From: a virus
Taxonomy: Duplodnaviria; Caudoviricetes
Length of the DNA stretch: 64,000 bases
Direction: 5' to 3' (one strand)
IMG/VR virus record: IMGVR_UViG_3300032038_000072
Span: 2,384-66,383 of that record
Position 1 is the stretch's first letter; the number at the start of each line of letters is the position of its first letter. The notes beneath the pieces are model-generated. The model was given only the letters and a program-made list of their open reading frames with translations, was not told the origin of the DNA and did no database searches. The translations under genes were made by a program, and so were the position numbers. Positions 44,488-59,343 of the stretch are shown here, piece by piece.

Positions 44488-47400
44488 TTAAACTCCAAAC
44501 TTGCTTCCGTAACGCTGTAGCGTTTTCTTTTCAATCATCTTGATGATTTCTCGCTTCTTGTCAATCATTTGCCGCTTACGGTCCGGGCTGATGTTTTTCG
44601 CGTTCGTGATTTCCTGGATTTCTTTCTGTTGCTTACTTACATCCCGAAGCGCTTTGTTCACAGCTTTGACAGCCGGAGTCGGATGACCCTTCTTGCCATA
44701 ACCAGCGTGTTGCTGCTGGGCCGTGTTAACCATCTCGTAGAACTCTTCCGAGGTTCTGTTCATGTTCATGTCGTTCAGGAAGAAGTCACGAACCATAACC
44801 CGTTCCGTAACAGGTTTGCTTGGCAGGTTGCGTTCGTCTTCAAAATACATGTCCGGAATCTGCGCTACCATCATGCCCAGCGTACCGGTATAACCTCTAA
44901 TGGTGTTATCCAGCTTGACAGGAGACAACCCGGAAATTTTTCCAAGCGCCTTGCTCAGTTCCGTAGTGTTGTTGTTGTACCGCATCTCTGCCGGCAGCCT
45001 CTTCAACCGGTTTCCTTCGATAGCCTTGTCTCGGAACAGAGAATAGTTTGTTATCCATTCCAGGATCGGCAAGCCTACCGTCGGGATCAGGTTCGGAACC
45101 AAAACTTCTCGCATCGCGTTAACCCATTCTTTACCGGCTTTGGGGTCCTTGTCGTAAAGCTTATCCAGCATTGCTTCGATACCGGAGCCAAACGCTATAC
45201 CAGCTTCCTGCGGTTTCGGGATACGGAATTTCCCGATAATCCAGTTGTTCATTTTGATATGCGGATCAAGTTCCTCATACCAAGGTTCGTCTTTGTGCAT
45301 AAACCACAGGGCCACAGACGGGAGCAGGATATAAAGCCCAAGCATACGAGCTGTCTGCATCCGTACCTTCGGGTCTTTGCTGAATATCATGCGGTTAAAC
45401 ATCTTGTCGCCGCCCTGGATGCATGCGTTAAAGAACGGAACCATCATGTTTACGCGCTGTCCGTAGAAGCCGGAGCGGCTGAAGTCTAAGGTTACATCCC
45501 TTGCATCAAGGGCTGCTTCCTGCATCGACTTGCCTTTTGCCCTTGCCCGCATGTACTCACCCATACGAGTGGAAGCTTCAACAACTTCGGACGCTGCAGC
45601 AAACTTTTTGGGAATATACTTGATAAGCTCCTTAATCAGCTCGGTCGGATGCGCTTTCAGGTACTGCCAATCCTTTTCACCCATCAACTCTTCCATGCTC
45701 TTTACAGCGCTTTCGCCACTGCCAAAGTAGTTGTAGGCCGTAATACCCATCGCGTCAAACTCACCGCGCAGTTCCTTGTCATGCAGGTACGCCCACATGC
45801 CGCGGAACGAATCCAGCACCGGCACAAAACCGTTCCGACTGGATACGCCGGCGAAGATTGTGTCGCGGATAAAGTTCCGGATGATAAAGGATGGAGACGT
45901 CGTGGCGCCGTACCGTAATGTCTGTGCTGCACTGCGGCACAAACCTTCTACAATACCCGCTGCAGGCATGTCGTAACCTACGACAGGACCGTACAAGTCC
46001 TGCGTGGTTTGGAAGGCAACCTTTTTTCCGTTAATCAGTACCGTAAAGATACAGTTCTTCGAGTCTGCAGTGCTTCCAGGAACCTGCTTCAGTATTCCTT
46101 CTTTTTGCAGTTCCGGACTGTTGGCTACCGTTTTCACAAAGTGTACGGCAACCTTGTTCCGTTCTGCGCGGTTCGTAAGCGCCTGGATGCTCTTATACGT
46201 GGATTCCAACGGGGAAATCAATCCGCGGTCACTACCAAGCTGTAACACGTGTTTCAGCATACTATCCACGTTTGCAATGCTGTCAGCTCCTCTGCCAAAC
46301 TGGGCGATTGCCGTATCCAGTCCAGCCGTGTCGGAGTAGTCAATCATCAACGGGCAGTATTCTTTGTACATCTGGTTAACTTTGTCATGAACGTCCGCCG
46401 GAATCAGGTGACCCAGTTCCATCATCGTCAGCAGGTTACGCTGCAACTGATAATAGATTTGCGCCGAAGTATCGAACTCTTTCGGTGCTTCTCTTACCAG
46501 CGCTTCGAGGTCGGCCCTGGTAACGTCTTTCGGGAACTTGTATTCCTTTGCAAGGTCTTTTGCCATCTTCTCCGCAAGGGCAGGATCGCTCTTGGCAATC
46601 TTTTGCACCTGATCTCTCCACGACCCTTTGGCAAAGGGCTGCGGTCTGAATTTTTCGTATTCCGGATGTCTGTCGATAAAGTCCGTAAACTCTTTCTTGT
46701 CGTGCGTAATGTACTGTAAGCTCTTGTCCTCTACCAACCGTACCAGTTCCAGGATACGTCTTGCGCCAAGGTAATTGGAGAACGCGTCGTGCCAGTTGTT
46801 GATGCCGTGTTTCTCGAGGTAGTCCGGATACTTCCGGTCCATATCCTTTTTCATTATCGGCTCCAACGCCTCTTTAACGGTGGCAAACTTAAAGTCTTTC
46901 TTCAATTCCTTCAGTCTGTCCATCGCGGCTGTGTCTTTAGGATCGATTCCTCTCCCCAAAGCATCTTTCAGCGACTCAAACGCTTCTTTTGAACCTTGTA
47001 CAAGCGTGTCTGCAGCGCCCTGTGCGTATGCCCTTGCGCCCTGCACCATGTTGTAAATCTTGTCTTCTTCCGCAAGCTTCTTGCCTGTGATTTTTTCAAT
47101 TGTGTCGTCAATGTTGTGGATAGCATCGTTTTTGTCGATCCACTCACGATAGAATTTGTCGAACCTGTCTTTTAACCACTCAGTCCATGTCTGCGCCTTG
47201 TTCTTGTTCTGCGTGTTGCTGAACGCCTTAGACGCGCGGCCGGTCGCTGTGTTCTCGTTTGGCGTACGTACGTTGCGGTTAACGTATGCGTCCGCTTTGT
47301 CAATCACTTTGCCGGCGGCAGATATAATGGAATACTTGGCGTCTGGCATAGAAGAAGCACCCTCGTCTCCTTGGGTGCCTTGTACTTGTTCTTTATTTAC

Positions 47401-50400
47401 GCCCTCGCCCAGCACTTTGTGTGCTGATGCCAACGCGCTTTCTTGTCCGAAGAAATCGTAGAAGCCAAAGCTTCCGCTGTACCTATACTGACCTTGCCCT
47501 TTCGCAGTTTCTGGATTGCTTGTAAGCAGAATGTCGTAAACGCCACTTCCCTGGCGATACAACGGCAGCAGACTCTTGTACGCTTCCTTATCGCTTGTTA
47601 CGATGTAGGCCCAGGTTCCATACTCATGCTTTGCTGCCCAACGCAGGTACCGCATTTTTTGGCCTTCGTCCATCTGCATGAACTCTTCAGGCAGCTGAAT
47701 GATAGACCGTACCTTGTCGCTGGCGTCCGTAAAGAAGACTGTTGTCTTGGACTGGTCTGCCAGCTTCTTTGAAATGTCTACCAATGCCTGCGTCGGTCCA
47801 AGCTTGGTCCCCAGCAGAATGTTAGGAACATCAGCCTTTTCGTCGTAATGGATTTGTGCGTGTTCCGGAATACTAAGCCTGCTTTCGTTTTTGCCTCCTG
47901 TCAGCACATTGCATTCCGTCGTATCGAGAATGATGTGTCCACCAAACCTTACTCCGCTCGGTTCCGCGTAAGATTTTAGGGAGTCTGTCAGGTCGAAATC
48001 AGCTTCGCTTGGTGTAATAACGCCGTCCGGATGGTTGTGCAGCATATAGAACGTGTCCGCCCCGATCCTGCGCATAGTTTCGCGCATCCGTTTTTCGTAC
48101 TTGCGCTCGCTCTCACCTTTGTACTGTGCCTTAACCGTGGCCGGAAAAGCGGCCGTTACTGTCTCGTGATAAATCACCTTGCCGTCTTTAACGTACACGT
48201 AGTGCAGCTTTTCGTAGCCTGGGTGCCGCAGCACCTGCGCAATTTCCGCCAGGTCGCTAATGCTGTTTACTGTTTGTCCGGTCAAGTCGGCATAGCCTTC
48301 GTTAATCAGTTTTCTTGTGAGGCTGAATCCTTTTTCTGTGTACAGCGGCATTCCTCCAACTTGCTCTCCGAGTGGATGCAGTACAGTGTTAGCGGTTGCC
48401 GACGGTTCCTGTCGACTTTCTTTTGTGTGATTTCCTGACGCGCTGTCGAGGATGTCTCCTTCGACTTTTCCGAAGTCAAGCGACTGTCTGATTGCGTACT
48501 TAACATTTTTGCTTACCGCCTTGTCTTTAATCTGTGGATACTTTTCAGCGGCCTCATCGTAAAGCTTTGCCGCTTCTTTTGCTTCTAATCTTCCGGAAGA
48601 TTCATTTCCTTCCTGACCTTCGCTCGGTAATCCCTCAGCTTCAGATGCAGCTGCTCTTTCGCTTCCGGATCTGTCTCGTTGTTCCACGCGTGTCTCAGTT
48701 CCTGATAGTCCGGCCTCTTCTGCAATTCCAAGTTCATCCGCCAATTCTTTGGCAAACTGCTGCCGAAGAAGATTTGTGCTTTCGTCGTAGATTCTTCCAT
48801 CTTTTGCACCTTCCTTGGTTTCTGCAAAACCATAATTGTCTTTGTACGGGAACGCCACATATGCTTCTGACATGTCCGTCTTAAAGTCTGGAACCAACTT
48901 TTTGATTTCGTTCATCAGCTCCTGGTCGTCCATATCAGAAAGGTTGACAATTTCCATCTTTCCATTTCTGGTAGAGTGGCCGCCAACGACCAAGTTTCCG
49001 TCATCATCCTTAATAGTGTATAGCTTGTCGTAAAGTTCGGCAACTTCTTTTTCGCCCCAACCTTTCGGCAGCGTGATAAGTATTTTACCATGTTTTTCGC
49101 CGCCTTCTATTGGAGTAGATGAAACTACCATCATGGAGTTTTGCCACATCACATAGCCCAATCGCTTGCTAACAGCAATTGCATCATTTTTGTCAACATC
49201 AAGGTAAAAGCTTGGGTTTGTGTCCCCTTCAAAACCGCCAATCTGATTCTTTAATGCACCCTCATCAATCTTGTGCAACGCAAGGACTTTTCTGGCATAT
49301 TTCGGACCCAGTTTGTCGTTTATTTCTTGCTTTCTCTCGCGGGACTGCTTATCCCAGGCCTTTTTAAATACTGTGTTGTCTGGGTCTGGCGCAACCTCAA
49401 AATTAACCTGTGCGCGGACGGAATATTTGGTTTTTCCTACTCCGGCTTTGGCAGGTTGTTTTGTTTCCTTATTTTTTCTTCGTACTGATTCATTTTTGCT
49501 GCGATTTCCTTTTTGATCGCCGGATCGGTCTCCTTTCGCCACCGGTTCACCATTCCCTGATAAACCTTGTCCTTCTGCAGGATTAAGTTCAACCGCCAGT
49601 CTTTGGGCAATTGCGCGCCCAATATAATCTTCGCGCTTATGTTGTCCACCCTCTTTCGACTTATCTTCATAACTGTTCTTGTCGAGGATTGTCGCAAATT
49701 CATCTGTGCCGTTTACGTTCAGTTCCGGAACCGCTTTTTTGACGTCTTCCAAAACTGTATCGTCAGACCACTTAGACGTATTGATAATTGTCATCTGCCC
49801 GTCAGAAGTGGAGTGTGTAGCCACAACCGGGTTTCCGTTGTGGTCTGTAATCTTTCCAAGCTTGTTTGAAAGTTCGCTTATTTCTTTTGATCCCCAGCCG
49901 GAAGGAATTTCGATAGACATTGTCTTGCCGGTGGTTCCAAGCACTTCTTTCGTTCCGGTTGCTATAACAGATTCCGGTTCAAACAGCCTGCCAAACATCT
50001 TTGCAACCGCCACTGTCTGCTGCGGGTTGCTAATTTCAACCGTATAGCCCACAGTAAGCTTGCCGTCTTTACTCTGGAAGGAAAGGTCTGGTTTTACATT
50101 ATCCCTAATGTCGAACTCTGCCAGAATCCAGTCCGTCGCAAACTCAAGAGCATTAGTCAATGCCGACTTCGCTTTTGTTCTGTCTTCTTCTTTGTCGCTC
50201 TCAATCATCGACCGAAGTATTTCTGCGTTTTCCTTTCTCAAATACTTGCTCGGGTCAATGCTGAAACCAACAACAAATTTATCCTTCCCACCAGCGCCGT
50301 TGTCGAATGGAGTAATCTTGACGTTAGACCGGTCGTAAGTTCCGGTAAGCGGAACGTCGTCAGGTGTGCTTTCCCACGAGAATTCGTTCAATTGACCGGT

Positions 50401-53400
50401 TCCTTTTGTAGCTATATTATATACCATTTCCCTTACTTTATCAAGAATTTCTTTGGCTTTTGCAGGGTCTTTTAGATTTTTTATCTGTTTGTCTGCTTCC
50501 TTAAACAGATTCGATATCCTGACCTGATCATTGCCCTTGTACGTGATATCCCTATAGGCTACTTCTTCATCGGCGCCAGCCTTAATACGTTCCTCGGCTT
50601 CGATAACGTCTTGTATAAAATTCTCTTGACCGTTCCACTTGTTTTTAATACCGTTAACAAGTTTTTTCTTGTCTAACGGTTTTTTGCTTTTCTTTTTGTC
50701 CTTGTTGTGGTTTTCAACAGTTTTTTCTGCATCTTCAATCAACGAAACAAGCCTCGGCAGTTTCTTCGCGGTTGCCTGTTCCTTCAGGTCCGAAAGAATG
50801 CCTGATATGTCTTTCCCGCTCTCAACTTTTTCCAGCGCTGCGTCGACTAAACCTACTCCAGCTTTTTGTTCTGCTTTAACTTTATCAAGCGCGGCCGCTT
50901 TGTTTTTGTTGCGTTTGAGTCGTGCTTTAGCTTCATCAATCATGCCTGCGATTCTCGACTGTTCTTTTTCGGTCGTCTTCATGTCTGCCGGGAACAGGTT
51001 ACGGATCGCCTCCCACGTGATTGACTGCATCTCTCTCGCGCTTAACGGTCTTCCTTCTCTTTCGCTTATCTCGGCAGCGGCTCTGCGATATGCTTCAAAG
51101 TAAAGCGGATATGTGCCAGAAATACCAATAATGTCGGACCCGCCAGCCGCACCGAAGTTGTCTTCAACAGACGAAGAGCCGCCGCTTGTCGGCTGCATTA
51201 AACCAACGCCGACCGCGTGTGTATCGATTGTAGCGTTTAACTTGCTTTCGGGGAAGCGTATGTTGTTAGAGAAGTTTCTAACCTTGTGCTGCTCGCCCAG
51301 CTGATAGGAAATGTTTTCCCATGTAGGATTAGCCGCAATCGATACAGCCTTTGCAATCGAGCCAAAGTCACCCCATGCCGCTCCCGCGTTTTCTCCCTTG
51401 GACGTTTTTACGTAGTCGCCGGTTCCACCTTCCGGAGTTAGAACCCTGTAGCCCCTGTCATTGTGCGCCTTGTCGAAACATTTGATCCAAATAGCAGCCG
51501 CTTCGTAGTCGCCGGCGTTCAACAGCTGTTTAAGCGTTTTATTTTTTGCACGTTCAAGCGCTTCTCTGTTTTCGTCGCCTTCAACAATCGACTTGTGCGT
51601 TACTTTAACAAGCTCTGTTTTTACAGGTTCTCCGCGCTTTTCTCTTGCAGCTTTATCTTTTTTCGATTCTTTAACAGGTTGTTCAACCATTTCGCTGTAG
51701 CCGTCAGCCTGTTTGGACATTTCTTCCGTCCACGCTTCGTTTGCGTGACCGAATACGCAGTCCAGGATACGTTCCGCAAGAGTCATGTTCGTGAACCAGT
51801 CTTTTTGCGGAGACAGTACAGCAATTATGCCAGCAGAAGCGTGTTCAGAAATGCCGTAGTGTTTCTTCCATTCTTTGGCAACCCTATTGCCACCATCGTA
51901 CCACTTCCTGGCCCGTTCGCGAATGTTTTCAGGAACCTTGTCGTACAAGTATACAATGTTGTCCTTTATTCTGTTTATAATTATATTCGCTGCCTTCTCT
52001 GTGTTTCTTTCAGAAGTAGACAGGCCAGGCAGACTCTTTAATGCGTCCACCAGTTTCTTAAACAACGCCGGGTCTTTCTTTACAGCTTCCAGGTCAGCAA
52101 TCAATCTCTGAGTTTCGCTGTCCTCTGTTGAACCTTTTGCCTTTGTCTGGCGTGTTGATACTTCAGCTGCCAACGGGTTGTTTTTGTAGTCTGTCTTGTC
52201 CTTCGGATTTGCGTATTTAATAGCGTACTTCGCATTGTCGCTTAATGCCGCAGGTTCAAAGTTCAGCTTCCCGTTGGTAACATACGGCCGTCCCGATTTG
52301 TCCTTGACATTTTGCAGAAGCTGTGCTACAGTAATTGAAGGATCGTTATCGTTCGCCGATGCCAGCAATTGTTTGGCGGTGGCAGGTAACGATCCTTTTC
52401 TTGTTAATTGGTAGTACATTGCCTTACCAACAACAAATTCTCCTGCGCTTCCGTCTTTTTCTTTTGCCTGTATGTGGATCGGGTAAATCTTGTCCCCGTT
52501 TTGAACTGCAGTATACAGGTCTACATACCTTGTGTCTGTTCCGTGTACGGCGTCCGGATGCTTTTCAATGTACATTGCATTGTTGAGAATCTCGTCTACT
52601 ATAGCCAAAGCTTTTTGCCGTTCTTCTCTGACAAGGCCTTTGTCAAATTCGTTGGCTCCTGCGCCACGGACGAGATGATCGTTCGGTTTAGACCGTTTGA
52701 TTCTTCCGTTAGGGAGCACCTCTTCATCATACTTTTGTGTAAATCCAATTCCGTCCGACCCTAAGATTCGGAAAGTTTTGCCGATTAAAGAATCCGCAAT
52801 AGCAGCTCTTACGGCAGGGTCTGTCGTATTCGCTCTTGCTACGTTCGTAACGTCAATCACCGGTATCCTTGTGTTGCCGGTGATTTTTTTGTTTGTAACG
52901 AGGAATTTCTTGTCGTTGTTTACGGCGTTTTCCTCTGTAGCAAACCGACCCTTTGCGTCCCGGTTCCAAACCTTACCTTCTTCAATCTGCTGATAGATGT
53001 TGTGTACGTTTTCCGCACCTGTCAGCACTCGCAAAGCCGCGTTGGCAAAGTCTTTAATCTTCTGGAACAGCTTGCCAAACAGCGTACCCTTGTGCTGCAA
53101 ACGGGCCAACAGCCAATCACGATAGCCGTCCGCCATTGCTTCTTCCACATCGATTCCTTTTGCTTCTGCAATCGGTGTGAAGTGTTTCAGCATGGCTTCT
53201 TTTTCCTTGTCCGTCAGCACCCAGTCCCAAATTGTGTGGAACGCTTCGTGGAAGGTCGTACCTCTTCCGCTCTCCTTAGACAGTGCCACCAGGGACCCTT
53301 TATCCAGGCGCCGCGCATAACCTTCAACGGTAATAGGAGTATCGGTATCGGTAAGTCCGTGTTCCTTGCGCGCTTTAGCTTCTTCCTCAGCGTTAAGGAG

Positions 53401-56400
53401 AATTTGGTCTTTGATGTTCACCTTCATCTCCAGACCGTTAGGCATGGTGAAAATCAGGTCGTTACGATTGATCCGGAACCCTTTTGCACCCTTAAACGCT
53501 TTCTTTGCTTCTGTAATCAGCTCGTCCAGAGAACGCTTCAGTTCCTGACCATTCTCTGTGTTGGATGCTTCTTCTACGGACGCAGAGTATTTGGTGGTGT
53601 TTTCAGGAGTTGTATTGTCAATGTCTTCCGCAAAGTGGATTGTAGCTTCCTGCCCGTTAGCCTTCAGCTGGTCGATAAGTTCGTTTATTGAGCGCAGCTT
53701 AAGTGGGCGACGCCCCTCTGCAACAAGTCCTTGGTTTACACGTTCCGTGCGTTTTACTACAGCATCGACACCGTTCTCCATCAATACATTGCCTGGTGTC
53801 AACTTTGCATCATGAAGAGCGAGAGTTCTTAACTCATGATACATCCATTGCAACAACGTACCCATAGTCCCCTTGACTTTTTCTCCAGTATCTGGATCAG
53901 TCCACCCTTCGATACTTGTGTAGTCAAGTTTGTCTCCGTCTGATAGTATCGGAGTGTATGTTTTATCACCAATGGTTATTCTTAAGTTTTCTTTCTTTTT
54001 CTTGTCCCTGGCTACCCACCTTTCGCGCATCTCTTCATAGCTTTCGCCGGTTTGTTTTGAAGTCTCATTGGAGTCTTTCCTGTTCTTAAAGATTTTCGAC
54101 AGTTGCTCGTCAAGTTTTTCTTTTGCTTCTTTTAAACGCCGTGCTGCTTCTTCGTCTGTTATAATTTGGAATTCGCGATCTGCGTTTATATCTTCTACTT
54201 TTCTTTCGTAGGCCTTTTGAGCAGTTGTTGCTTCATCTTCAACCGTTGCATTTTGTGATTTTTTCTGTACGGTATTCGTTGTGCTGATACCTACATTTCC
54301 TTTTTTCAGCTTTCTGGCAAGATCAAGCGCATCTTGGAAGTTAGGTGTTAACCCTACCTGTTCCTTTTTGTTTTCAAGGCTCTTAATGATTTCGTCGATG
54401 CTTAAGAACTCACCGTTGTCGTTCATCTTAATGGCTTCGTACAGTAAGCAACGCAACGGGTTGTCTGCACCTTCGACGGCCTTACCGTCTGTGGATTCCC
54501 AACGCATAATGCCGTCGTTGTTTGCGTTCGATTTGACAATGGTAAGCCTATAGCTTTTGTTTCCAACCTTAACAACGATGCCTTTTAAGCCTTCGTACGT
54601 CTTGCGCAAGGATTCGCTTACAATAATAGGATCGCCTTGGCCGGTAGTAGGAGCTTCCGCTTTCGCTTCCGCCTTGTCAAGCTCTTTGTCAAACTTGTCG
54701 GCAGCAGCCTCGGCCTGTTTTTTAGCTTCTGCAACAGAAACGGTACCTTCTTCAACGGCCTTGTTGGTCTTTTCTAATTCTCCGTTGTAGGTTTGTTCGG
54801 AAGCTGATAATCCTCTCCGAACAGCATCTTTCCCGTCTGCTGTTCTGCCCACATCTGCTGATTGTTCAGGTAGTCCGCTTGCTGCATTTTCTCCTCGATC
54901 GGATTCTTTATTGCGTACGTCCTCATCATTTGCTCGTAGTACCGTTTCGCCTGTTCCGTTCTCATGTCCAGATACGGGTTCAGTCTCCCGTCCTCTACCA
55001 TTTTCTGATAAATTTCCGGACTGTTTTGCTCCAGATGCTTCCGATACTGTTCCCTGGTTATCTGCATTTTTCTTTACCTCAGTCGCCTTAAAAATAGAAG
55101 AACCGCTCTGATCTTCCGTATCAGCGCGGTTTGCTTGCTGTTGTTTTTCTGTTACGCTTCTCTTTCTGCCTTTACTTCCTCGATTACTTCCTCTGTTGCT
55201 TTCTCCAGAGCCGGATTCGAGTCGTCCGTCGTATCCGTTGGATAGTTCCCCGGATTCTCGTAATATTTCTGAATAATCCGCATCCACGGGGAAGCTGTTA
55301 TCGATCCACTCATACCGCTCTACGCCCCTTTCGTCCTTTATCCTTAAATAATTCTTTAAAATTTCGTTGTCAACGGGAATGGTTTCTGTGGGACCTAACC
55401 GGTCTTTCCGTGCGCCATTTGGTAACTGTATTGTAACATATCCATTCGGTTTTTGCAACACCAGTTTGCTTATATTTTTTGGATTGTCAAACCGACCGGT
55501 TTCTTCAAAGCGTTTTGAGATTCGTCTTAACGCTTCATCTGCGGAAACATCAACCAAAGAAAGTGTGACTTCATACGGCTGTATTACATTTTTGTTTGAG
55601 TCTTTCACGCCCTTGTCGTTGTGAAGTTGGGATATTTTCTTCTGTATAGAATCGTAATTCCCACCTATTGTCGGATAGCAAATGTTGTCTCCCTGCTCTA
55701 TTGCGTACATAAACATAGACTTGCTTAAAGCAGAGCTTTCATCGTGTACAATGTCTGCAAGCGCGCCACCATGAAATTCGGGAAGCAGTTTTTTAGCCTC
55801 ATCCGCGTCAATCAGCAGGTATCCTTTGTTGTCGGTTAGGTCTTTGGTTACCGTACTCTTGCCTGCGGCAGGATAACCAATTGCAAGCGTTGCTTTCCTT
55901 TCACGCTTTCTGTTTTGTATCCCAATATTGTACAGATATTCTACAATTCTTGCCTGTAATTTTTTCCGCTCCGGCGTTAACTTTTCGTCTATAGTCCTGG
56001 AAATACCGGTGTCCTTGATAAACTTTTCTTTCAGTGCTTGTGCAACCGCTGCGTTTTCTTCCCGACTCTTCGACTTATCATACACGAACGGATTTTCGTC
56101 TAACCACTTCCGTACTTTTGGACTTAACAGCTTGCGGCCATCGTTTAAGATCAAGCCACGCTTAACCGAATCTTCCATAGCGTAGCGGTTTGCATCGGCT
56201 TCAGCTTGGGTGATTTCTCCACGCTGTAACAGGATGTCAAGCGAGTTGTTGTACTTTTGCATCAACTCATCCGCTTTCTCCTGTGTAAATGTCATGGATT
56301 TTACCGCAGTATCTACCTCGTTTTTAAATCCGTCGAGATGCCTTTTTGCCGGAGTCTTTTTGGTTACTTCAGCTTGGTTCTGGTTTTGCCCACTTTCACC

Positions 56401-59343
56401 GGTTTGACCTTTTTGTTGCTCAACTTTTTCAGATTCGGAGTTTCCATTTTGATTCCGATTTTCGCCGGTTTCGGGCTGCGATAACTTCTCGGACTTCTGA
56501 CTCGTACCATTCTTCTTACCTTCTTTCTTGGCTTTCGGTTCCGGGTAAACTACCTTGCTTGCCTCTGCATATGCCTCTGCTGGAGTCTTACCCTCGGCTA
56601 TCAACTCATTTACACGGTTTTCAAACCTCTTGCCGCTTAACTTAACCGGCTTAACGACGTCTCCCTTAACCTCATTAAACGCCTCGTCCGCAGTTTTCCC
56701 TTCTGCAATAAGTTGTAAACCGCGATCTCTTGCTTTTCTAACCTGTTCGATCAGCGGCGCTTTTTCGCTTGTGTTAAGTGTAGAAGTCTTCGCATTAAAA
56801 TCGTCTTTCAACAAGCTTTCAAGCCTCTGCTGTGGGGACTGCGAGGACTCTGCAGCAATCTCTTCATCCGCTTTTGCATAAGCTCGTTGCTTAAGCTCTT
56901 CCGGCAAATTGCTTTCTTCCATAGCCTTGACCGCAGTTTTAACTCCCATCCGCGCGCGTTTTGCAACATTAACAACTTCGCGTGGAACTATGTTTTGCTG
57001 TTCCGCTGACTGCTGTTCCAAGTTACTTTTAGCCGCCGTCTTTTGCTCGTTGGTCGGCTGATACCCGGTCAAAGGTGTCGCTTCGTCGTTATTCTCTTGT
57101 GCAACAGGTTGTTGCACCTGCTGTTGCTGTCCAGTTGCAGGAGCGGCCGCGGGAGTTGCAGGAGTAGTGGTTGTTGCATTTTTTGCAACATCTTGATTCT
57201 GTTGTGCCTGCTGTTGTTGTACAACAGGTTTCTCCACTTCAGTTGTATTAGCAGTTGTATTAGCGGTTGTGGCAACATTGGGAGCAGGTTGGGTAACGGT
57301 TGGGTTAGCATTGTTAACAACAGTGGTCTGCTGTCTGTTCCCGAGCATTTGGCTGTACATGCCACGCGCTACCTGTATCCTCTCTGCTGCAGTGTCGCTC
57401 CAATTCTGTTTCTGCGAGTAGTAATTATCGAAACTGTTCTTTAAATTCTGCCGCTGTTCCGGGCTTAACGCATCAAGTTCCTGCCTCGTAAACGCGTTGT
57501 AATATTCGTTGATCGGTCCAACTTCGGAAGCATTGTCCTGCTGATACTTCTGTGCTTCGGAAACAGCCTGTTCCTGCTGTTCCTGCTCGTGGGTCTTTGC
57601 ACCGAACACTTCTCGAATAGCGTCCTGCCGGCGCTGTCTTTCCTGCTCAACAAGGTTTTTATAGTATTCTTGCTGCCTCTGCTCCTCGTTAACGCCCTGC
57701 AGATTTCCAGAAACACCATAGTCGCCAGAAGACAATTCCGAAGTGCTAATGTAATACTGTACGGCGCCAAACATCTGCTGAGGAGACTGCGCACTTTCGT
57801 ATACACCGTTATGGCTGGACCCGTTCTGGATCGTGCCACCATTTTCAGAAACCATAACAATGTGGTTTCCGTTGTTAACAACCGCAAGGTCGCCAGGTTT
57901 CGGAACATAATTGTTCGGGTCTTTCAGCTGACCTTTTTCTTTTGCGATAGCAACAAAGTTGTCTACGTTAATTTGGTCCTGGTAATCAGTTCCAGCCAAA
58001 GCAAGACCAATAGTCCGGGCGCAGTTTGTTCCGTCAGATGCGTTGTAACCAATGCGCCCTTCCAAGTTTCTCATGCGATCCACAAGGTTGGTAGAAGTGT
58101 CGTGCTTTGCGATAGCTACGGCATCTGCGAACTCGTTGTTGGTGACAGCGTTCTGGATGTTGACAGCAGGATTTTCGCCCTCTTGCTGTTGCGAACCCAC
58201 AACCTTGTTCCTAACATAGCCTGCGCCACCATAAAGGGCACCCATACCAAGACCAGCTGCAGCACCGGTGGTTGCGGCGTCAATCTGTTCTGTATTCCAT
58301 TGGAACGGGTTAACGATTTGACCGATGTTGTCAATCTGCCCCTGTGCATATTGACTTGCCCCAGTCTGTGCGCCTTCTTCCCAAGCGTTCTGTGCCACAT
58401 TGGTAGCCATAAATTCACCAATGTCACGGACTTTGCCAAGGATACCCTGACGCATCTTGTCACCAAACAACCGACCGATACCAACGGATTCAAGCAGGTT
58501 GCTTGCACCAAGTATGCCAAGGTTGGCAACAAAGTTCTTCGCCATAGCTTCCTGAACTTTGTCCATATCAACGTCATTCATATCGATTCGGTTGCCGTTC
58601 TTGTCCGTGGTCATCTCACGATAAACACCGCCAGATTCAGAGCCTGCCTCTAACGGTGAGGACGCAATTACGTTTTTGATTAACTTGCCTGCCGTTGAGC
58701 CACCTTTTAATGCGGCCGCAACAGATTTCAGACCGATTTTTGATGCAAACGCGGCCATAGCGCCGGTTCCGGCAGCAGCTATACTTGACGGTATCGCAGC
58801 GGATAATAATGCGGCTTCAGCCATCATCACACCGCTGGACCCAAGGCCGCCACCAACATCGTATGTAAAACCATTAGGATCAAGCAGGTAGTCCTTTATA
58901 CTGGAAAGTCCGTTTTTTGTGATTTCATCGAAAGTGTACTCCTTGGGTCTGCCATAATTCTGCACAGCCTTTTGGATTGAATCACCGATGTCACGAGCCG
59001 TTTCACTTCCAGTAGCACCCGCAACAAGGTCAACCTGCCCACCAAGTGTACCAGCACCCTGCTGAACCGCGCCACGAAGGAACGAGTTCAGATAGCTCGG
59101 TTCTTCCGCTCCCTGCTGTTGCGGTTGTCCGCTTACACGATTAACAATAGACCCAAACAGACCAGGTTCTTCTTGCGGCATCTGTGCAGGAGCACCGTAA
59201 TTTTCCCGTATCATCTTCTGATACGGAGTCTCTTCCTGTTCCGGGGCATTAAAATTAACCCCCAACTGTTGCTGTTGGGGGCCTGCTTCATATTCATCTA
59301 AATATTTACTTAATTCATCATATGTTGCCATAGTGTTCTTCAC
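44488..59343 (-). CDS. 4951-aa large polyvalent (DarB-like) internal virion/ejection protein
   Basis: NlpC/CHAP-like (NCART...NHIV), zeta-type P-loop kinase (GYPAAGKS), HExxH peptidase (HEAFH), LPD3/BECR-like, HhH-like (K...TIDTH), duplicated domain, JAB/RadC (HNHP..PS..D) and C-terminal LPD38-like region. Confidence 0.9.
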   Translation of the reverse strand: MKNTMATYDELSKYLDEYEAGPQQQQLGVNFNAPEQEETPYQKMIRENYGAPAQMPQEEPGLFGSIVNRVSGQPQQQGAEEPSYLNSFLRGAVQQGAGTLGGQVDLVAGATGSETARDIGDSIQKAVQNYGRPKEYTFDEITKNGLSSIKDYLLDPNGFTYDVGGGLGSSGVMMAEAALLSAAIPSSIAAAGTGAMAAFASKIGLKSVAAALKGGSTAGKLIKNVIASSPLEAGSESGGVYREMTTDKNGNRIDMNDVDMDKVQEAMAKNFVANLGILGASNLLESVGIGRLFGDKMRQGILGKVRDIGEFMATNVAQNAWEEGAQTGASQYAQGQIDNIGQIVNPFQWNTEQIDAATTGAAAGLGMGALYGGAGYVRNKVVGSQQQEGENPAVNIQNAVTNNEFADAVAIAKHDTSTNLVDRMRNLEGRIGYNASDGTNCARTIGLALAGTDYQDQINVDNFVAIAKEKGQLKDPNNYVPKPGDLAVVNNGNHIVMVSENGGTIQNGSSHNGVYESAQSPQQMFGAVQYYISTSELSSGDYGVSGNLQGVNEEQRQQEYYKNLVEQERQRRQDAIREVFGAKTHEQEQQEQAVSEAQKYQQDNASEVGPINEYYNAFTRQELDALSPEQRQNLKNSFDNYYSQKQNWSDTAAERIQVARGMYSQMLGNRQQTTVVNNANPTVTQPAPNVATTANTTANTTEVEKPVVQQQQAQQNQDVAKNATTTTPATPAAAPATGQQQQVQQPVAQENNDEATPLTGYQPTNEQKTAAKSNLEQQSAEQQNIVPREVVNVAKRARMGVKTAVKAMEESNLPEELKQRAYAKADEEIAAESSQSPQQRLESLLKDDFNAKTSTLNTSEKAPLIEQVRKARDRGLQLIAEGKTADEAFNEVKGDVVKPVKLSGKRFENRVNELIAEGKTPAEAYAEASKVVYPEPKAKKEGKKNGTSQKSEKLSQPETGENRNQNGNSESEKVEQQKGQTGESGQNQNQAEVTKKTPAKRHLDGFKNEVDTAVKSMTFTQEKADELMQKYNNSLDILLQRGEITQAEADANRYAMEDSVKRGLILNDGRKLLSPKVRKWLDENPFVYDKSKSREENAAVAQALKEKFIKDTGISRTIDEKLTPERKKLQARIVEYLYNIGIQNRKRERKATLAIGYPAAGKSTVTKDLTDNKGYLLIDADEAKKLLPEFHGGALADIVHDESSALSKSMFMYAIEQGDNICYPTIGGNYDSIQKKISQLHNDKGVKDSNKNVIQPYEVTLSLVDVSADEALRRISKRFEETGRFDNPKNISKLVLQKPNGYVTIQLPNGARKDRLGPTETIPVDNEILKNYLRIKDERGVERYEWIDNSFPVDADYSEILRESGELSNGYDGRLESGSGESNRGSNRGSKGRKRSVTEKQQQANRADTEDQSGSSIFKATEVKKNADNQGTVSEASGAKQSGNLSENGRGRETEPVSGHENGTGETVLRANDEDVRNKESDRGENAASGLPEQSADVGRTADGKDAVRRGLSASEQTYNGELEKTNKAVEEGTVSVAEAKKQAEAAADKFDKELDKAEAKAEAPTTGQGDPIIVSESLRKTYEGLKGIVVKVGNKSYRLTIVKSNANNDGIMRWESTDGKAVEGADNPLRCLLYEAIKMNDNGEFLSIDEIIKSLENKKEQVGLTPNFQDALDLARKLKKGNVGISTTNTVQKKSQNATVEDEATTAQKAYERKVEDINADREFQIITDEEAARRLKEAKEKLDEQLSKIFKNRKDSNETSKQTGESYEEMRERWVARDKKKKENLRITIGDKTYTPILSDGDKLDYTSIEGWTDPDTGEKVKGTMGTLLQWMYHELRTLALHDAKLTPGNVLMENGVDAVVKRTERVNQGLVAEGRRPLKLRSINELIDQLKANGQEATIHFAEDIDNTTPENTTKYSASVEEASNTENGQELKRSLDELITEAKKAFKGAKGFRINRNDLIFTMPNGLEMKVNIKDQILLNAEEEAKARKEHGLTDTDTPITVEGYARRLDKGSLVALSKESGRGTTFHEAFHTIWDWVLTDKEKEAMLKHFTPIAEAKGIDVEEAMADGYRDWLLARLQHKGTLFGKLFQKIKDFANAALRVLTGAENVHNIYQQIEEGKVWNRDAKGRFATEENAVNNDKKFLVTNKKITGNTRIPVIDVTNVARANTTDPAVRAAIADSLIGKTFRILGSDGIGFTQKYDEEVLPNGRIKRSKPNDHLVRGAGANEFDKGLVREERQKALAIVDEILNNAMYIEKHPDAVHGTDTRYVDLYTAVQNGDKIYPIHIQAKEKDGSAGEFVVGKAMYYQLTRKGSLPATAKQLLASANDNDPSITVAQLLQNVKDKSGRPYVTNGKLNFEPAALSDNAKYAIKYANPKDKTDYKNNPLAAEVSTRQTKAKGSTEDSETQRLIADLEAVKKDPALFKKLVDALKSLPGLSTSERNTEKAANIIINRIKDNIVYLYDKVPENIRERARKWYDGGNRVAKEWKKHYGISEHASAGIIAVLSPQKDWFTNMTLAERILDCVFGHANEAWTEEMSKQADGYSEMVEQPVKESKKDKAAREKRGEPVKTELVKVTHKSIVEGDENREALERAKNKTLKQLLNAGDYEAAAIWIKCFDKAHNDRGYRVLTPEGGTGDYVKTSKGENAGAAWGDFGSIAKAVSIAANPTWENISYQLGEQHKVRNFSNNIRFPESKLNATIDTHAVGVGLMQPTSGGSSSVEDNFGAAGGSDIIGISGTYPLYFEAYRRAAAEISEREGRPLSAREMQSITWEAIRNLFPADMKTTEKEQSRIAGMIDEAKARLKRNKNKAAALDKVKAEQKAGVGLVDAALEKVESGKDISGILSDLKEQATAKKLPRLVSLIEDAEKTVENHNKDKKKSKKPLDKKKLVNGIKNKWNGQENFIQDVIEAEERIKAGADEEVAYRDITYKGNDQVRISNLFKEADKQIKNLKDPAKAKEILDKVREMVYNIATKGTGQLNEFSWESTPDDVPLTGTYDRSNVKITPFDNGAGGKDKFVVGFSIDPSKYLRKENAEILRSMIESDKEEDRTKAKSALTNALEFATDWILAEFDIRDNVKPDLSFQSKDGKLTVGYTVEISNPQQTVAVAKMFGRLFEPESVIATGTKEVLGTTGKTMSIEIPSGWGSKEISELSNKLGKITDHNGNPVVATHSTSDGQMTIINTSKWSDDTVLEDVKKAVPELNVNGTDEFATILDKNSYEDKSKEGGQHKREDYIGRAIAQRLAVELNPAEGQGLSGNGEPVAKGDRSGDQKGNRSKNESVRRKNKETKQPAKAGVGKTKYSVRAQVNFEVAPDPDNTVFKKAWDKQSRERKQEINDKLGPKYARKVLALHKIDEGALKNQIGGFEGDTNPSFYLDVDKNDAIAVSKRLGYVMWQNSMMVVSSTPIEGGEKHGKILITLPKGWGEKEVAELYDKLYTIKDDDGNLVVGGHSTRNGKMEIVNLSDMDDQELMNEIKKLVPDFKTDMSEAYVAFPYKDNYGFAETKEGAKDGRIYDESTNLLRQQFAKELADELGIAEEAGLSGTETRVEQRDRSGSERAAASEAEGLPSEGQEGNESSGRLEAKEAAKLYDEAAEKYPQIKDKAVSKNVKYAIRQSLDFGKVEGDILDSASGNHTKESRQEPSATANTVLHPLGEQVGGMPLYTEKGFSLTRKLINEGYADLTGQTVNSISDLAEIAQVLRHPGYEKLHYVYVKDGKVIYHETVTAAFPATVKAQYKGESERKYEKRMRETMRRIGADTFYMLHNHPDGVITPSEADFDLTDSLKSYAEPSGVRFGGHIILDTTECNVLTGGKNESRLSIPEHAQIHYDEKADVPNILLGTKLGPTQALVDISKKLADQSKTTVFFTDASDKVRSIIQLPEEFMQMDEGQKMRYLRWAAKHEYGTWAYIVTSDKEAYKSLLPLYRQGSGVYDILLTSNPETAKGQGQYRYSGSFGFYDFFGQESALASAHKVLGEGVNKEQVQGTQGDEGASSMPDAKYSIISAAGKVIDKADAYVNRNVRTPNENTATGRASKAFSNTQNKNKAQTWTEWLKDRFDKFYREWIDKNDAIHNIDDTIEKITGKKLAEEDKIYNMVQGARAYAQGAADTLVQGSKEAFESLKDALGRGIDPKDTAAMDRLKELKKDFKFATVKEALEPIMKKDMDRKYPDYLEKHGINNWHDAFSNYLGARRILELVRLVEDKSLQYITHDKKEFTDFIDRHPEYEKFRPQPFAKGSWRDQVQKIAKSDPALAEKMAKDLAKEYKFPKDVTRADLEALVREAPKEFDTSAQIYYQLQRNLLTMMELGHLIPADVHDKVNQMYKEYCPLMIDYSDTAGLDTAIAQFGRGADSIANVDSMLKHVLQLGSDRGLISPLESTYKSIQALTNRAERNKVAVHFVKTVANSPELQKEGILKQVPGSTADSKNCIFTVLINGKKVAFQTTQDLYGPVVGYDMPAAGIVEGLCRSAAQTLRYGATTSPSFIIRNFIRDTIFAGVSSRNGFVPVLDSFRGMWAYLHDKELRGEFDAMGITAYNYFGSGESAVKSMEELMGEKDWQYLKAHPTELIKELIKYIPKKFAAASEVVEASTRMGEYMRARAKGKSMQEAALDARDVTLDFSRSGFYGQRVNMMVPFFNACIQGGDKMFNRMIFSKDPKVRMQTARMLGLYILLPSVALWFMHKDEPWYEELDPHIKMNNWIIGKFRIPKPQEAGIAFGSGIEAMLDKLYDKDPKAGKEWVNAMREVLVPNLIPTVGLPILEWITNYSLFRDKAIEGNRLKRLPAEMRYNNNTTELSKALGKISGLSPVKLDNTIRGYTGTLGMMVAQIPDMYFEDERNLPSKPVTERVMVRDFFLNDMNMNRTSEEFYEMVNTAQQQHAGYGKKGHPTPAVKAVNKALRDVSKQQKEIQEITNAKNISPDRKRQMIDKKREIIKMIEKKTLQRYGSKFGV
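48585..48800 (-). CDS. Nested +1-frame gene A (71 aa) inside giant gene
   Basis: AAGGAAGGTG SD 6 nt before ATG48800; 29/64 identical to nested gene B. Confidence 0.75.
   Translation of the reverse strand: MEESTTKAQIFFGSSLPKNWRMNLELQKRPDYQELRHAWNNETDPEAKEQLHLKLRDYRAKVRKEMNLPED
49437..49670 (-). CDS. Nested +1-frame gene B (67-77 aa) inside giant gene
   Basis: Paralogue of A; start is ATG49670, or ATA49640, which has the same SD geometry as A. Confidence 0.7.
   Translation of the reverse strand: MKISRKRVDNISAKIILGAQLPKDWRLNLILQKDKVYQGMVNRWRKETDPAIKKEIAAKMNQYEEKIRKQNNLPKPE
54774..55067 (-). CDS. Nested +1-frame TnpV-like protein (97 aa)
   Basis: GAGGT SD; L.E..P..Y..M...G.L..YL....EQA pattern. 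Confidence 0.65.
   Translation of the reverse strand: MQITREQYRKHLEQNSPEIYQKMVEDGRLNPYLDMRTEQAKRYYEQMMRTYAIKNPIEEKMQQADYLNNQQMWAEQQTGKMLFGEDYQLPNKPTTEN
55090..55131 (-). terminator. Terminator-like hairpin inside giant ORF
   Basis: 12-bp stem with one mismatch (55101-55112/55120-55131) followed by CTTCTATTTTT. Confidence 0.5.
55152..55313 (-). CDS. Nested +1-frame 53-aa acidic protein after kinase domain
   Basis: MSGSITASPWMRIIQKYYENPG...EKATEEVIEEVKAEREA; ACGAAAGGGG SD. Confidence 0.5.
   Translation of the reverse strand: MSGSITASPWMRIIQKYYENPGNYPTDTTDDSNPALEKATEEVIEEVKAEREA
56364..56510 (-). CDS. Nested +1-frame 48-aa very basic protein
   Basis: GAAGGT SD; MVRVRSPRSYRSPKPAKIGIKMETPNLKKLSNKKVKPVKVGKTRTKLK. 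Confidence 0.4.
   Translation of the reverse strand: MVRVRSPRSYRSPKPAKIGIKMETPNLKKLSNKKVKPVKVGKTRTKLK

Follow-up and report, generated by a model that had tools for sequence, protein, structure and literature searches.

Does a giant phage gene carry further genuine genes within its own coding sequence, and if so, which of the two overlapping reading frames came first? The question is raised by the window analysed here, a stretch of 64,000 nucleotides (positions 2,384 to 66,383) of the IMG/VR virus record IMGVR_UViG_3300032038_000072, a 66-kb record rated complete. The window holds a gene for a giant polyvalent protein, and an earlier note on this DNA had pointed to two open reading frames (ORFs), A and B, as paralogous small genes hidden in the +1 frame of that gene. 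We find two more such ORFs, C and D, and all four lie wholly inside the giant gene, on the same strand and in its +1 frame. We consider it probable that A to D are genuine small genes, that theirs is the older frame, onto which linkers of the giant protein have been overprinted, and that they are translated by internal initiation, with an accessory or anti-defence role as our guess at what they do.

Aligned without gaps over 64 columns, A and B share 29 residues in the +1 frame, 19 in the main frame and 22 in the third frame (108 of 192 nucleotides), which exactly reproduces the first two counts as given before. Over a 56-codon core the mismatches at codon positions 1, 2 and 3 of the alternative frame number 24, 17 and 30, so that the third position of the main frame is the best conserved, the reverse of what is seen in a normal gene. 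A word search with residues 3100-3600 of the giant protein found one close relative, protein P0004 (4788 aa, 72% identical), of the same layout and encoded by the DNA that we call L001; the same search returned 17 distant giant proteins, each with the duplicated domain discussed below once. The nested layout is known in two genomes only, the window and L001.

We aligned the whole giant gene with L001 codon by codon and scanned it in windows of 50 codons. Codon position 3 takes most of the substitutions everywhere but over A, B and C, where position 1 of the main frame dominates; pooled by main-frame codon position, the counts are 43/20/20 inside A, B and C together and 267/228/685 outside (chi-square p=3e-10). 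The ratio of non-synonymous to synonymous substitution rates (dN/dS), calculated by the Nei-Gojobori method for the window against L001, is 0.057 in the alternative frame of C (7 synonymous changes, 2 not), with 0 synonymous and 9 non-synonymous changes in the main frame and differences of 8/1/0 by main codon position. The corresponding values are 0.03 for B (7 synonymous, 1 not) against about 2.1 in the main frame (7/0/1), and 0.34 for A against 0.90 (28/19/19). The changes in B and C are scattered singles, 15 of the 17 being at third positions of the alternative frame. Gene D, compared with its homologues at the locus L015, differs at 20/9/9 main-frame positions. In contigs from four animal-gut runs, related phages carry variants in B at 49497 and 49530 and in C at 54978 and 54984, all at third positions of the alternative frame, and a further variant in B, at 49519, is the single Ala/Glu change. 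These frame-specific ratios bear out the earlier proposal that selection is stronger on the hidden frame.

Codon usage was scored as log-odds per codon, with frequencies taken from the phage's own genes. The +1 frame scores 0.275 over A, 0.294 over B, 0.466 over C and 0.388 over D, to be compared with 0.40 +/- 0.12 for the genuine giant frame elsewhere and -0.51 +/- 0.17 (maximum -0.135) for the +1 frame elsewhere in the giant gene. The main frame scores -0.12 to 0.16 over the nested genes, and 78-87% of its residues there are G, S, E, R, K, N, D, Q, T, P or A. ORF length was rejected as evidence, as junk +1 stretches of 99-153 codons are open elsewhere in the giant gene; it is the frame-specific conservation, the codon usage and the family membership that go beyond chance. 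Because dN/dS, codon usage and the existence of a free-standing family are three independent tests, we conclude that over the nested genes the hidden +1 frame, and not the main frame, appears to be under selection. Family matches, codon usage and selection all support the earlier view that A and B are real coding sequences. The positions of the nested genes and of the features around them are given in the table.

Table. Features of the giant gene and its nested genes (window coordinates; SD, Shine-Dalgarno; HMM, hidden Markov model)
Feature	Position	Strand	Description
Giant polyvalent-protein gene, host frame	44488..59343	-	ORF list and translation; 4951 aa, GTG start, 14.9 kb
Nested gene A	48585..48800	-	+1 frame, 71 aa; ATG 48800, stop 48585-48587; A2 family HMM E=1e-33
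SD-like AAGGAAGG	48809..48816	-	8 nt 5' of the ATG of A
Cassette, domain copy 2 + gene A	48604..49443	-	divergent between window and L001; flanks 97-100% identical (per-10-codon identity profile)
Duplicated domain copy 2, main frame	48802..49434	-	BLASTP between copies; found once in each of 17 other giant proteins
Nested gene B	49437..49670	-	+1 frame, 77 aa from ATG 49670; stop 49437-49439; A2 HMM E=4e-32
Duplicated domain copy 1, main frame	49704..50223	-	only C-terminal half clearly alignable
Nested gene C	54774..55067	-	+1 frame, 97 aa, TnpV-like; GAGGT (55076-55080) 8 nt before ATG
Nested gene D	55152..55313	-	+1 frame, 53 aa, 85 nt upstream of C; homologous to L015 ORFs

The free-standing family was found with a profile built from A, B and their L001 counterparts. 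Among 1.84 billion representatives this profile matched 13 full-length free-standing proteins of 51-86 aa (E 1.7e-24 to 4e-5) and one in-frame fusion. The match spans profile positions 2-70, the N-termini of A and B lie where family members begin, and the shared motif reads ARIIFG..LPKNW..NL..QKD..YQ...W..E[TK]DP. An AlphaFold2 model of A, made from the family alignment, has three helices behind a conserved extended N-terminus (predicted local distance difference test, pLDDT, 82.7). The family had no match in Pfam, PHROG or NCBIfam, and a Foldseek search of the PDB with the model of A gave nothing below E=1; a sequence search of the PDB with A2 gave only weak J-domain-like matches (E 0.3-0.8), and the HPD motif is missing from the family. 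The ESM Atlas search gave no usable match, tblastn of B, C and protein P0029 against GenBank phages gave none, and no match was confirmed when viral contigs were scanned with the domain, A1 and C. A and B belong to a family without prior description, made up of small proteins of about 70 aa with three helices.

At 15 loci the A/B-type gene stands by itself as a small gene, with no long ORF overlapping it on the same strand. These loci comprise ENA and Logan contigs, nine contigs from the Joint Genome Institute (JGI) and other metagenomes, and two metagenome-assembled genomes of Acidaminococcaceae (goat gut; L023 and L024). Often 2-5 copies of the family stand in a row, with neighbours that include a gene for a fragment resembling the N-terminal part of S-adenosylmethionine (SAM) synthetase, a DNA methylase, Vsr, an Mrr-type nuclease, and WG-repeat or Sel1-repeat proteins. 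Since the families are mostly free-standing elsewhere, we concluded that the small genes probably represent the older reading frame and that the G/E/R/S linkers of the giant protein were overprinted on them. This reverses the direction assumed in the earlier note, which had the small genes overprinted inside the giant gene. In about 5 of 13 loci no stop interrupts the free gene in the frame that corresponds to the giant main frame, and at L003 this open frame (-1 relative to the free gene) gives nearly the same linker sequence as the giant protein, so that read-through would be easy.

The free-standing relatives of the nested genes are often found in tandem arrays on mobile elements. Arrays of 3-5 A/B copies occupy L003 2111-6204, L009 3070-3831 and L023 4738-6201, and adjoin genes of 118-124 aa that match only the N-terminal domain of SAM synthetase, as well as DNA methylase, Vsr and Mrr-type nuclease genes. 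The neighbourhood of the arrays has the look of an island of anti-restriction or accessory genes. The duplicated domain of the giant gene weakly resembles a phage SAM lyase, and the free A/B arrays adjoin SAM-synthetase-N-like genes.

Genes C and D belong to other families. C matches the Pfam family PF14198 (TnpV) above threshold, with 32.6 bits at a gathering cut-off of 27 (E=8.6e-8); the match covers profile positions 29-93 of 111 only, the N-terminal quarter of the profile being absent, and C is therefore not a full-length TnpV. The C-terminus of C (GEDYQLP) resembles what we take to be a motif of TnpV N-termini, and a circular permutation of C relative to TnpV is possible. A tblastn search of C against plasmids gave no match, and the sole match in a word search was a 97%-identical ORF on a 1.1-kb contig. 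Two tandem free-standing ORFs in L015 (121-290 and 295-485) are homologues of D, whose stop lies at the same place as theirs. Kinship between the A/B family and C was considered and rejected, as the two are unrelated by hhalign.

The duplication of the domain in front of A and B, which the earlier note had described, is real: BLASTP aligns copies 1 and 2 at 33% identity over 191 aa (E=2e-28). The AlphaFold2 model of the domain is a double beta-alpha-beta (ferredoxin-like) unit (pLDDT 77) and its best structural matches are generic, with Z 9.6 for subdomains of a resistance-nodulation-division (RND) pump and Z 8.2 for a phage SAM lyase. The domain has no Pfam match, no toxin resemblance appeared among the structural matches of its model, and only 3 phage records matched the region, weakly. 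The stretch of copy 2 that follows the stop of B has no start codon of its own, and hence the main frame of the giant gene must be translated through the nested genes.

We then considered whether each domain and its small gene had been duplicated as a unit. Gene A of the window is 71% identical to L013, 69% to L011 and 68% to L012, all free-standing, next to 58% for A of L001 and 41% for B; the nearest relative of B outside L001 is the free-standing P0024, at 61%. On this identity matrix a simple recent tandem duplication of domain plus gene was rejected, and A and B appear from their sequences to be old paralogues. A different form of joint inheritance held up. Because the window and L001 diverge in a block from 49443 to 48604 that lies between near-identical flanks, we conclude that domain copy 2 and gene A have been exchanged between phages as one cassette. 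One edge of the block, 49443, lies just before the stop codon of B, the other, 48604, six codons before the stop of A, and a contig in run X3 diverges at 49438. The mosaic breakpoints at 48604 and 49438-49443 are thus at or beside the stop codons of A and B, and conserved ends of small genes may serve as recombination junctions for domain swapping.

The pairing of domain and small gene had been read earlier as a sign that A and B are cognate immunity or chaperone proteins, which would protect the producing cell from the preceding domain copy or keep that domain folded. That each stands directly behind one domain copy would fit this idea, as would the joint exchange of copy 2 and A between the window and L001 and the remnants of the domain's 3' end (its last 8-40 codons) upstream of free-standing small genes, about 40 codons in L018 and shorter in L012 and L011, which point to an old adjacency. 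Yet the small gene persists alone or in arrays at all 15 free-standing loci, where the domain HMM has no match, and three distant domain-bearing giant genes have no A/B-like ORF in any frame. Nesting is also not specific to the duplicated domain, since C and D, of other families, are nested behind a different one, and the generic ferredoxin-like folds of the model give no hint of a toxin. We consider an immunity or chaperone role unlikely. A broader idea, that giant genes grow through small-gene arrays and that the engulfed genes stay active and are co-expressed from the same messenger RNA as matched partners of the neighbouring domain (as inhibitor, chaperone or packaging adaptor), strikes us as doubtful. 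If it were true, domain and nested gene would evolve together within each cassette and work as one unit, and phages and conjugative elements would exchange these units among themselves.

How the small genes would be translated is suggested by their starts. Measured from the stop to the first ATG, the open +1 stretches run over 48585..48860 for A and 49437..49703 for B, the starts at 48800 and 49670 being internal ATGs, and each of the two genes begins within the last residues of a domain copy. Stops in the alternative frame lie 0-3 codons ahead of the ATG in C (2 codons), in D, in B of the window and in A of L001. A and C have an SD sequence and an ATG, and D has the phage's own start-associated motif 11 nt upstream. 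In L001 the ATG of A is at the same position, right behind a stop, with AAGGAAGGAG 6 nt upstream. The starts and stops of the nested ORFs are conserved between the window and L001, which keeps all of them together with its 4788-aa host frame although A differs at 66 of 213 nt. Scans for promoters and terminators around the nested genes found them at chance level only. The stops close to the ATGs and the SD sequences of A and C favour internal initiation over frameshifting.

Were the +1 frames reached by programmed ribosomal frameshifting, the products would be shortened forms of the giant protein with the small-protein module at their end, and not separate small proteins. The observations that would suit it include five consecutive A directly ahead of the ATG of C and two that we list among the difficulties of our own interpretation below, the start of B and the in-frame modules of other proteins. 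The stops just ahead of the ATGs leave almost no room for a shift site, however, the beginnings of the ORFs match those of free-standing family members, and the SD sequences of A and C are properly spaced. Frameshifting therefore seems to us very unlikely.

Several points weigh against the view that A to D are genuine small genes. We infer their translation from sequence. The comparison covers two genomes, in which B and C differ at just 8-9 nt, so that the substitutions are few and possibly linked. No recognisable SD sequence precedes the ATG of B at 49670, and the codon homologous to the ATG of A is ATA; this ATA, at 49638-49640, lies 9 nt behind AAAGAGG (49650-49656), an arrangement identical in L001, and translation of B may start at a near-cognate codon or else at 49670, with an ATG that has no SD. 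The A/B module also occurs in frame inside larger proteins (L009, 815 aa; L019, 702 aa; L013, 438 aa; P0035), which makes a fusion product by frameshifting not absurd. Finally, exchange of alleles with free-standing copies is evident for A, which in the window is nearer to L013 than to the A of L001, and part of the apparent purifying pattern could consequently have been imported and not generated in place.

The last point is taken furthest by the possibility that the nested ORFs are engulfed genes no longer expressed, their coding signature being kept by recombination with functional free copies or persisting because they are young. Beyond the allele replacement at A, related phages have contigs with other sequence in place of segments around A, C and D, and the openness by chance of the -1 frame in free genes would make engulfment easy. 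The differences in B and C, by contrast, form no patch of the kind that a diverged donor would leave, no close free-standing relative of either was found (the nearest to B being the one at 61%, and C having only the ORF on the short contig), and starts, SD sequences and stops are intact in both phages. We regard silent engulfed genes as highly improbable. What these comparisons show is that the small genes are members of families, that purifying selection acts on their frame in particular, that their codon usage is native to the phage, that their starts and stops are kept, and that a cassette has been exchanged.

If the nested ORFs are genuine small genes, the giant gene would have arisen or grown by loss of stop codons or by fusion across small intervening genes. 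Its ORF reads each small gene one base out of register. The small genes are purine-rich and encode helices rich in K, E, Q and R, so that the shifted frame contains few stops and gives a translation rich in G, E, R, S and N. Such a sequence could act as a flexible linker between domains and evolve almost freely as long as it was kept open. The small proteins would most likely be made by internal initiation on the messenger RNA of the giant gene. As to their function, our guess is that they are accessory or anti-defence proteins, drawn from the same gene pool as the domains of the giant protein and not dedicated partners of the domain that precedes them.

Embedded genes on the same strand are known as such. 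In the Rz/Rz1 spanins of phage lambda, as here, a complete small gene of a phage lies inside a larger one on the same strand and in the +1 frame, where gene callers routinely miss it, and an origin of embedded spanin genes by loss of an upstream stop codon has been considered by Kongari et al. (PMC6139136). Rz and Rz1, however, are obligate partners in one machine, with one pair per phage, whereas here four unrelated small genes lie in one gene of 14.9 kb and the host frame over them is only linker. In Bacillus subtilis the small regulatory gene comS lies in a distinct frame inside srfAB, a giant multidomain gene, and is expressed from the same operon (PMC12915044). comS overlaps a folded enzyme module and is a single case with no free-standing family, in contrast to the nested genes described here, which have free-standing relatives, are in the older frame and overlap a linker. 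Polymorphic toxin and immunity pairs share with this locus a small gene directly after a variable domain and exchange of the pair as a cassette; the locus differs from them in having no recognisable toxin domain, no conserved co-occurrence outside its lineage, and a small gene that stands inside the ORF and not after its stop. Our literature search found no paper on this arrangement. What is new at the locus is the nested A/B and D families, the presence of four nested genes in one gene, the free homologues that fix the direction of overprinting, and the cassette-wise exchange.

The phage that carries the giant gene is a temperate gut phage, with genes for a portal, a large terminase (TerL), an integrase, RecE/RecT and a collagen-like tail fibre. 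Because Pfam matches to LPD38 (E=4e-32), DUF7178 and RadC/JAB fall in one phage ORF, the giant gene encodes a large polyvalent protein of phage type as described by Iyer et al. 2017 (PMC5512222), who list LPD38 as phage-type only and do not mention overlapping genes, frameshifts or linkers. Roughly 20 metagenome runs contain relatives of the giant gene, which are present in animal-gut runs of 8 studies. A Negativicute of rumen or gut, or some other Firmicute, is the probable host. Two further parts of the giant gene vary among related phages. At 53596-54262, contigs of runs X1, X3 and X7 skip 665 nt and have 11 other letters between, and L001 is without residues ~1700-1930 of the giant protein at the same place, as if a whole domain module were present in some of these phages and absent from others, with the frame kept. 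The segment 57300-57400 (giant residues ~655-705) is of Q/N/T-rich low complexity, with insertions and deletions between the window and L001 and codon-position counts of 4/4/3 that show no bias; most likely this is an unconstrained linker of the ordinary kind, with no gene nested in it.

Standard annotation gives this locus as one gene of 4,951 aa and overlooks what are probably four conserved proteins, of which two belong to an unnamed family. The overprinting proposed here is also of an unusual kind, as the disordered new frame would belong to the large gene and the nested gene would be ancestral. As a general rule, Willis and Masel found more disorder in the younger of two overlapping genes (bioRxiv 10.1101/229690), with which a disordered linker as the young frame agrees. 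The locus would thus illustrate a simple route by which giant polyvalent proteins may be assembled, through stop loss and read-through, with the shifted frame serving as a harmless flexible linker.

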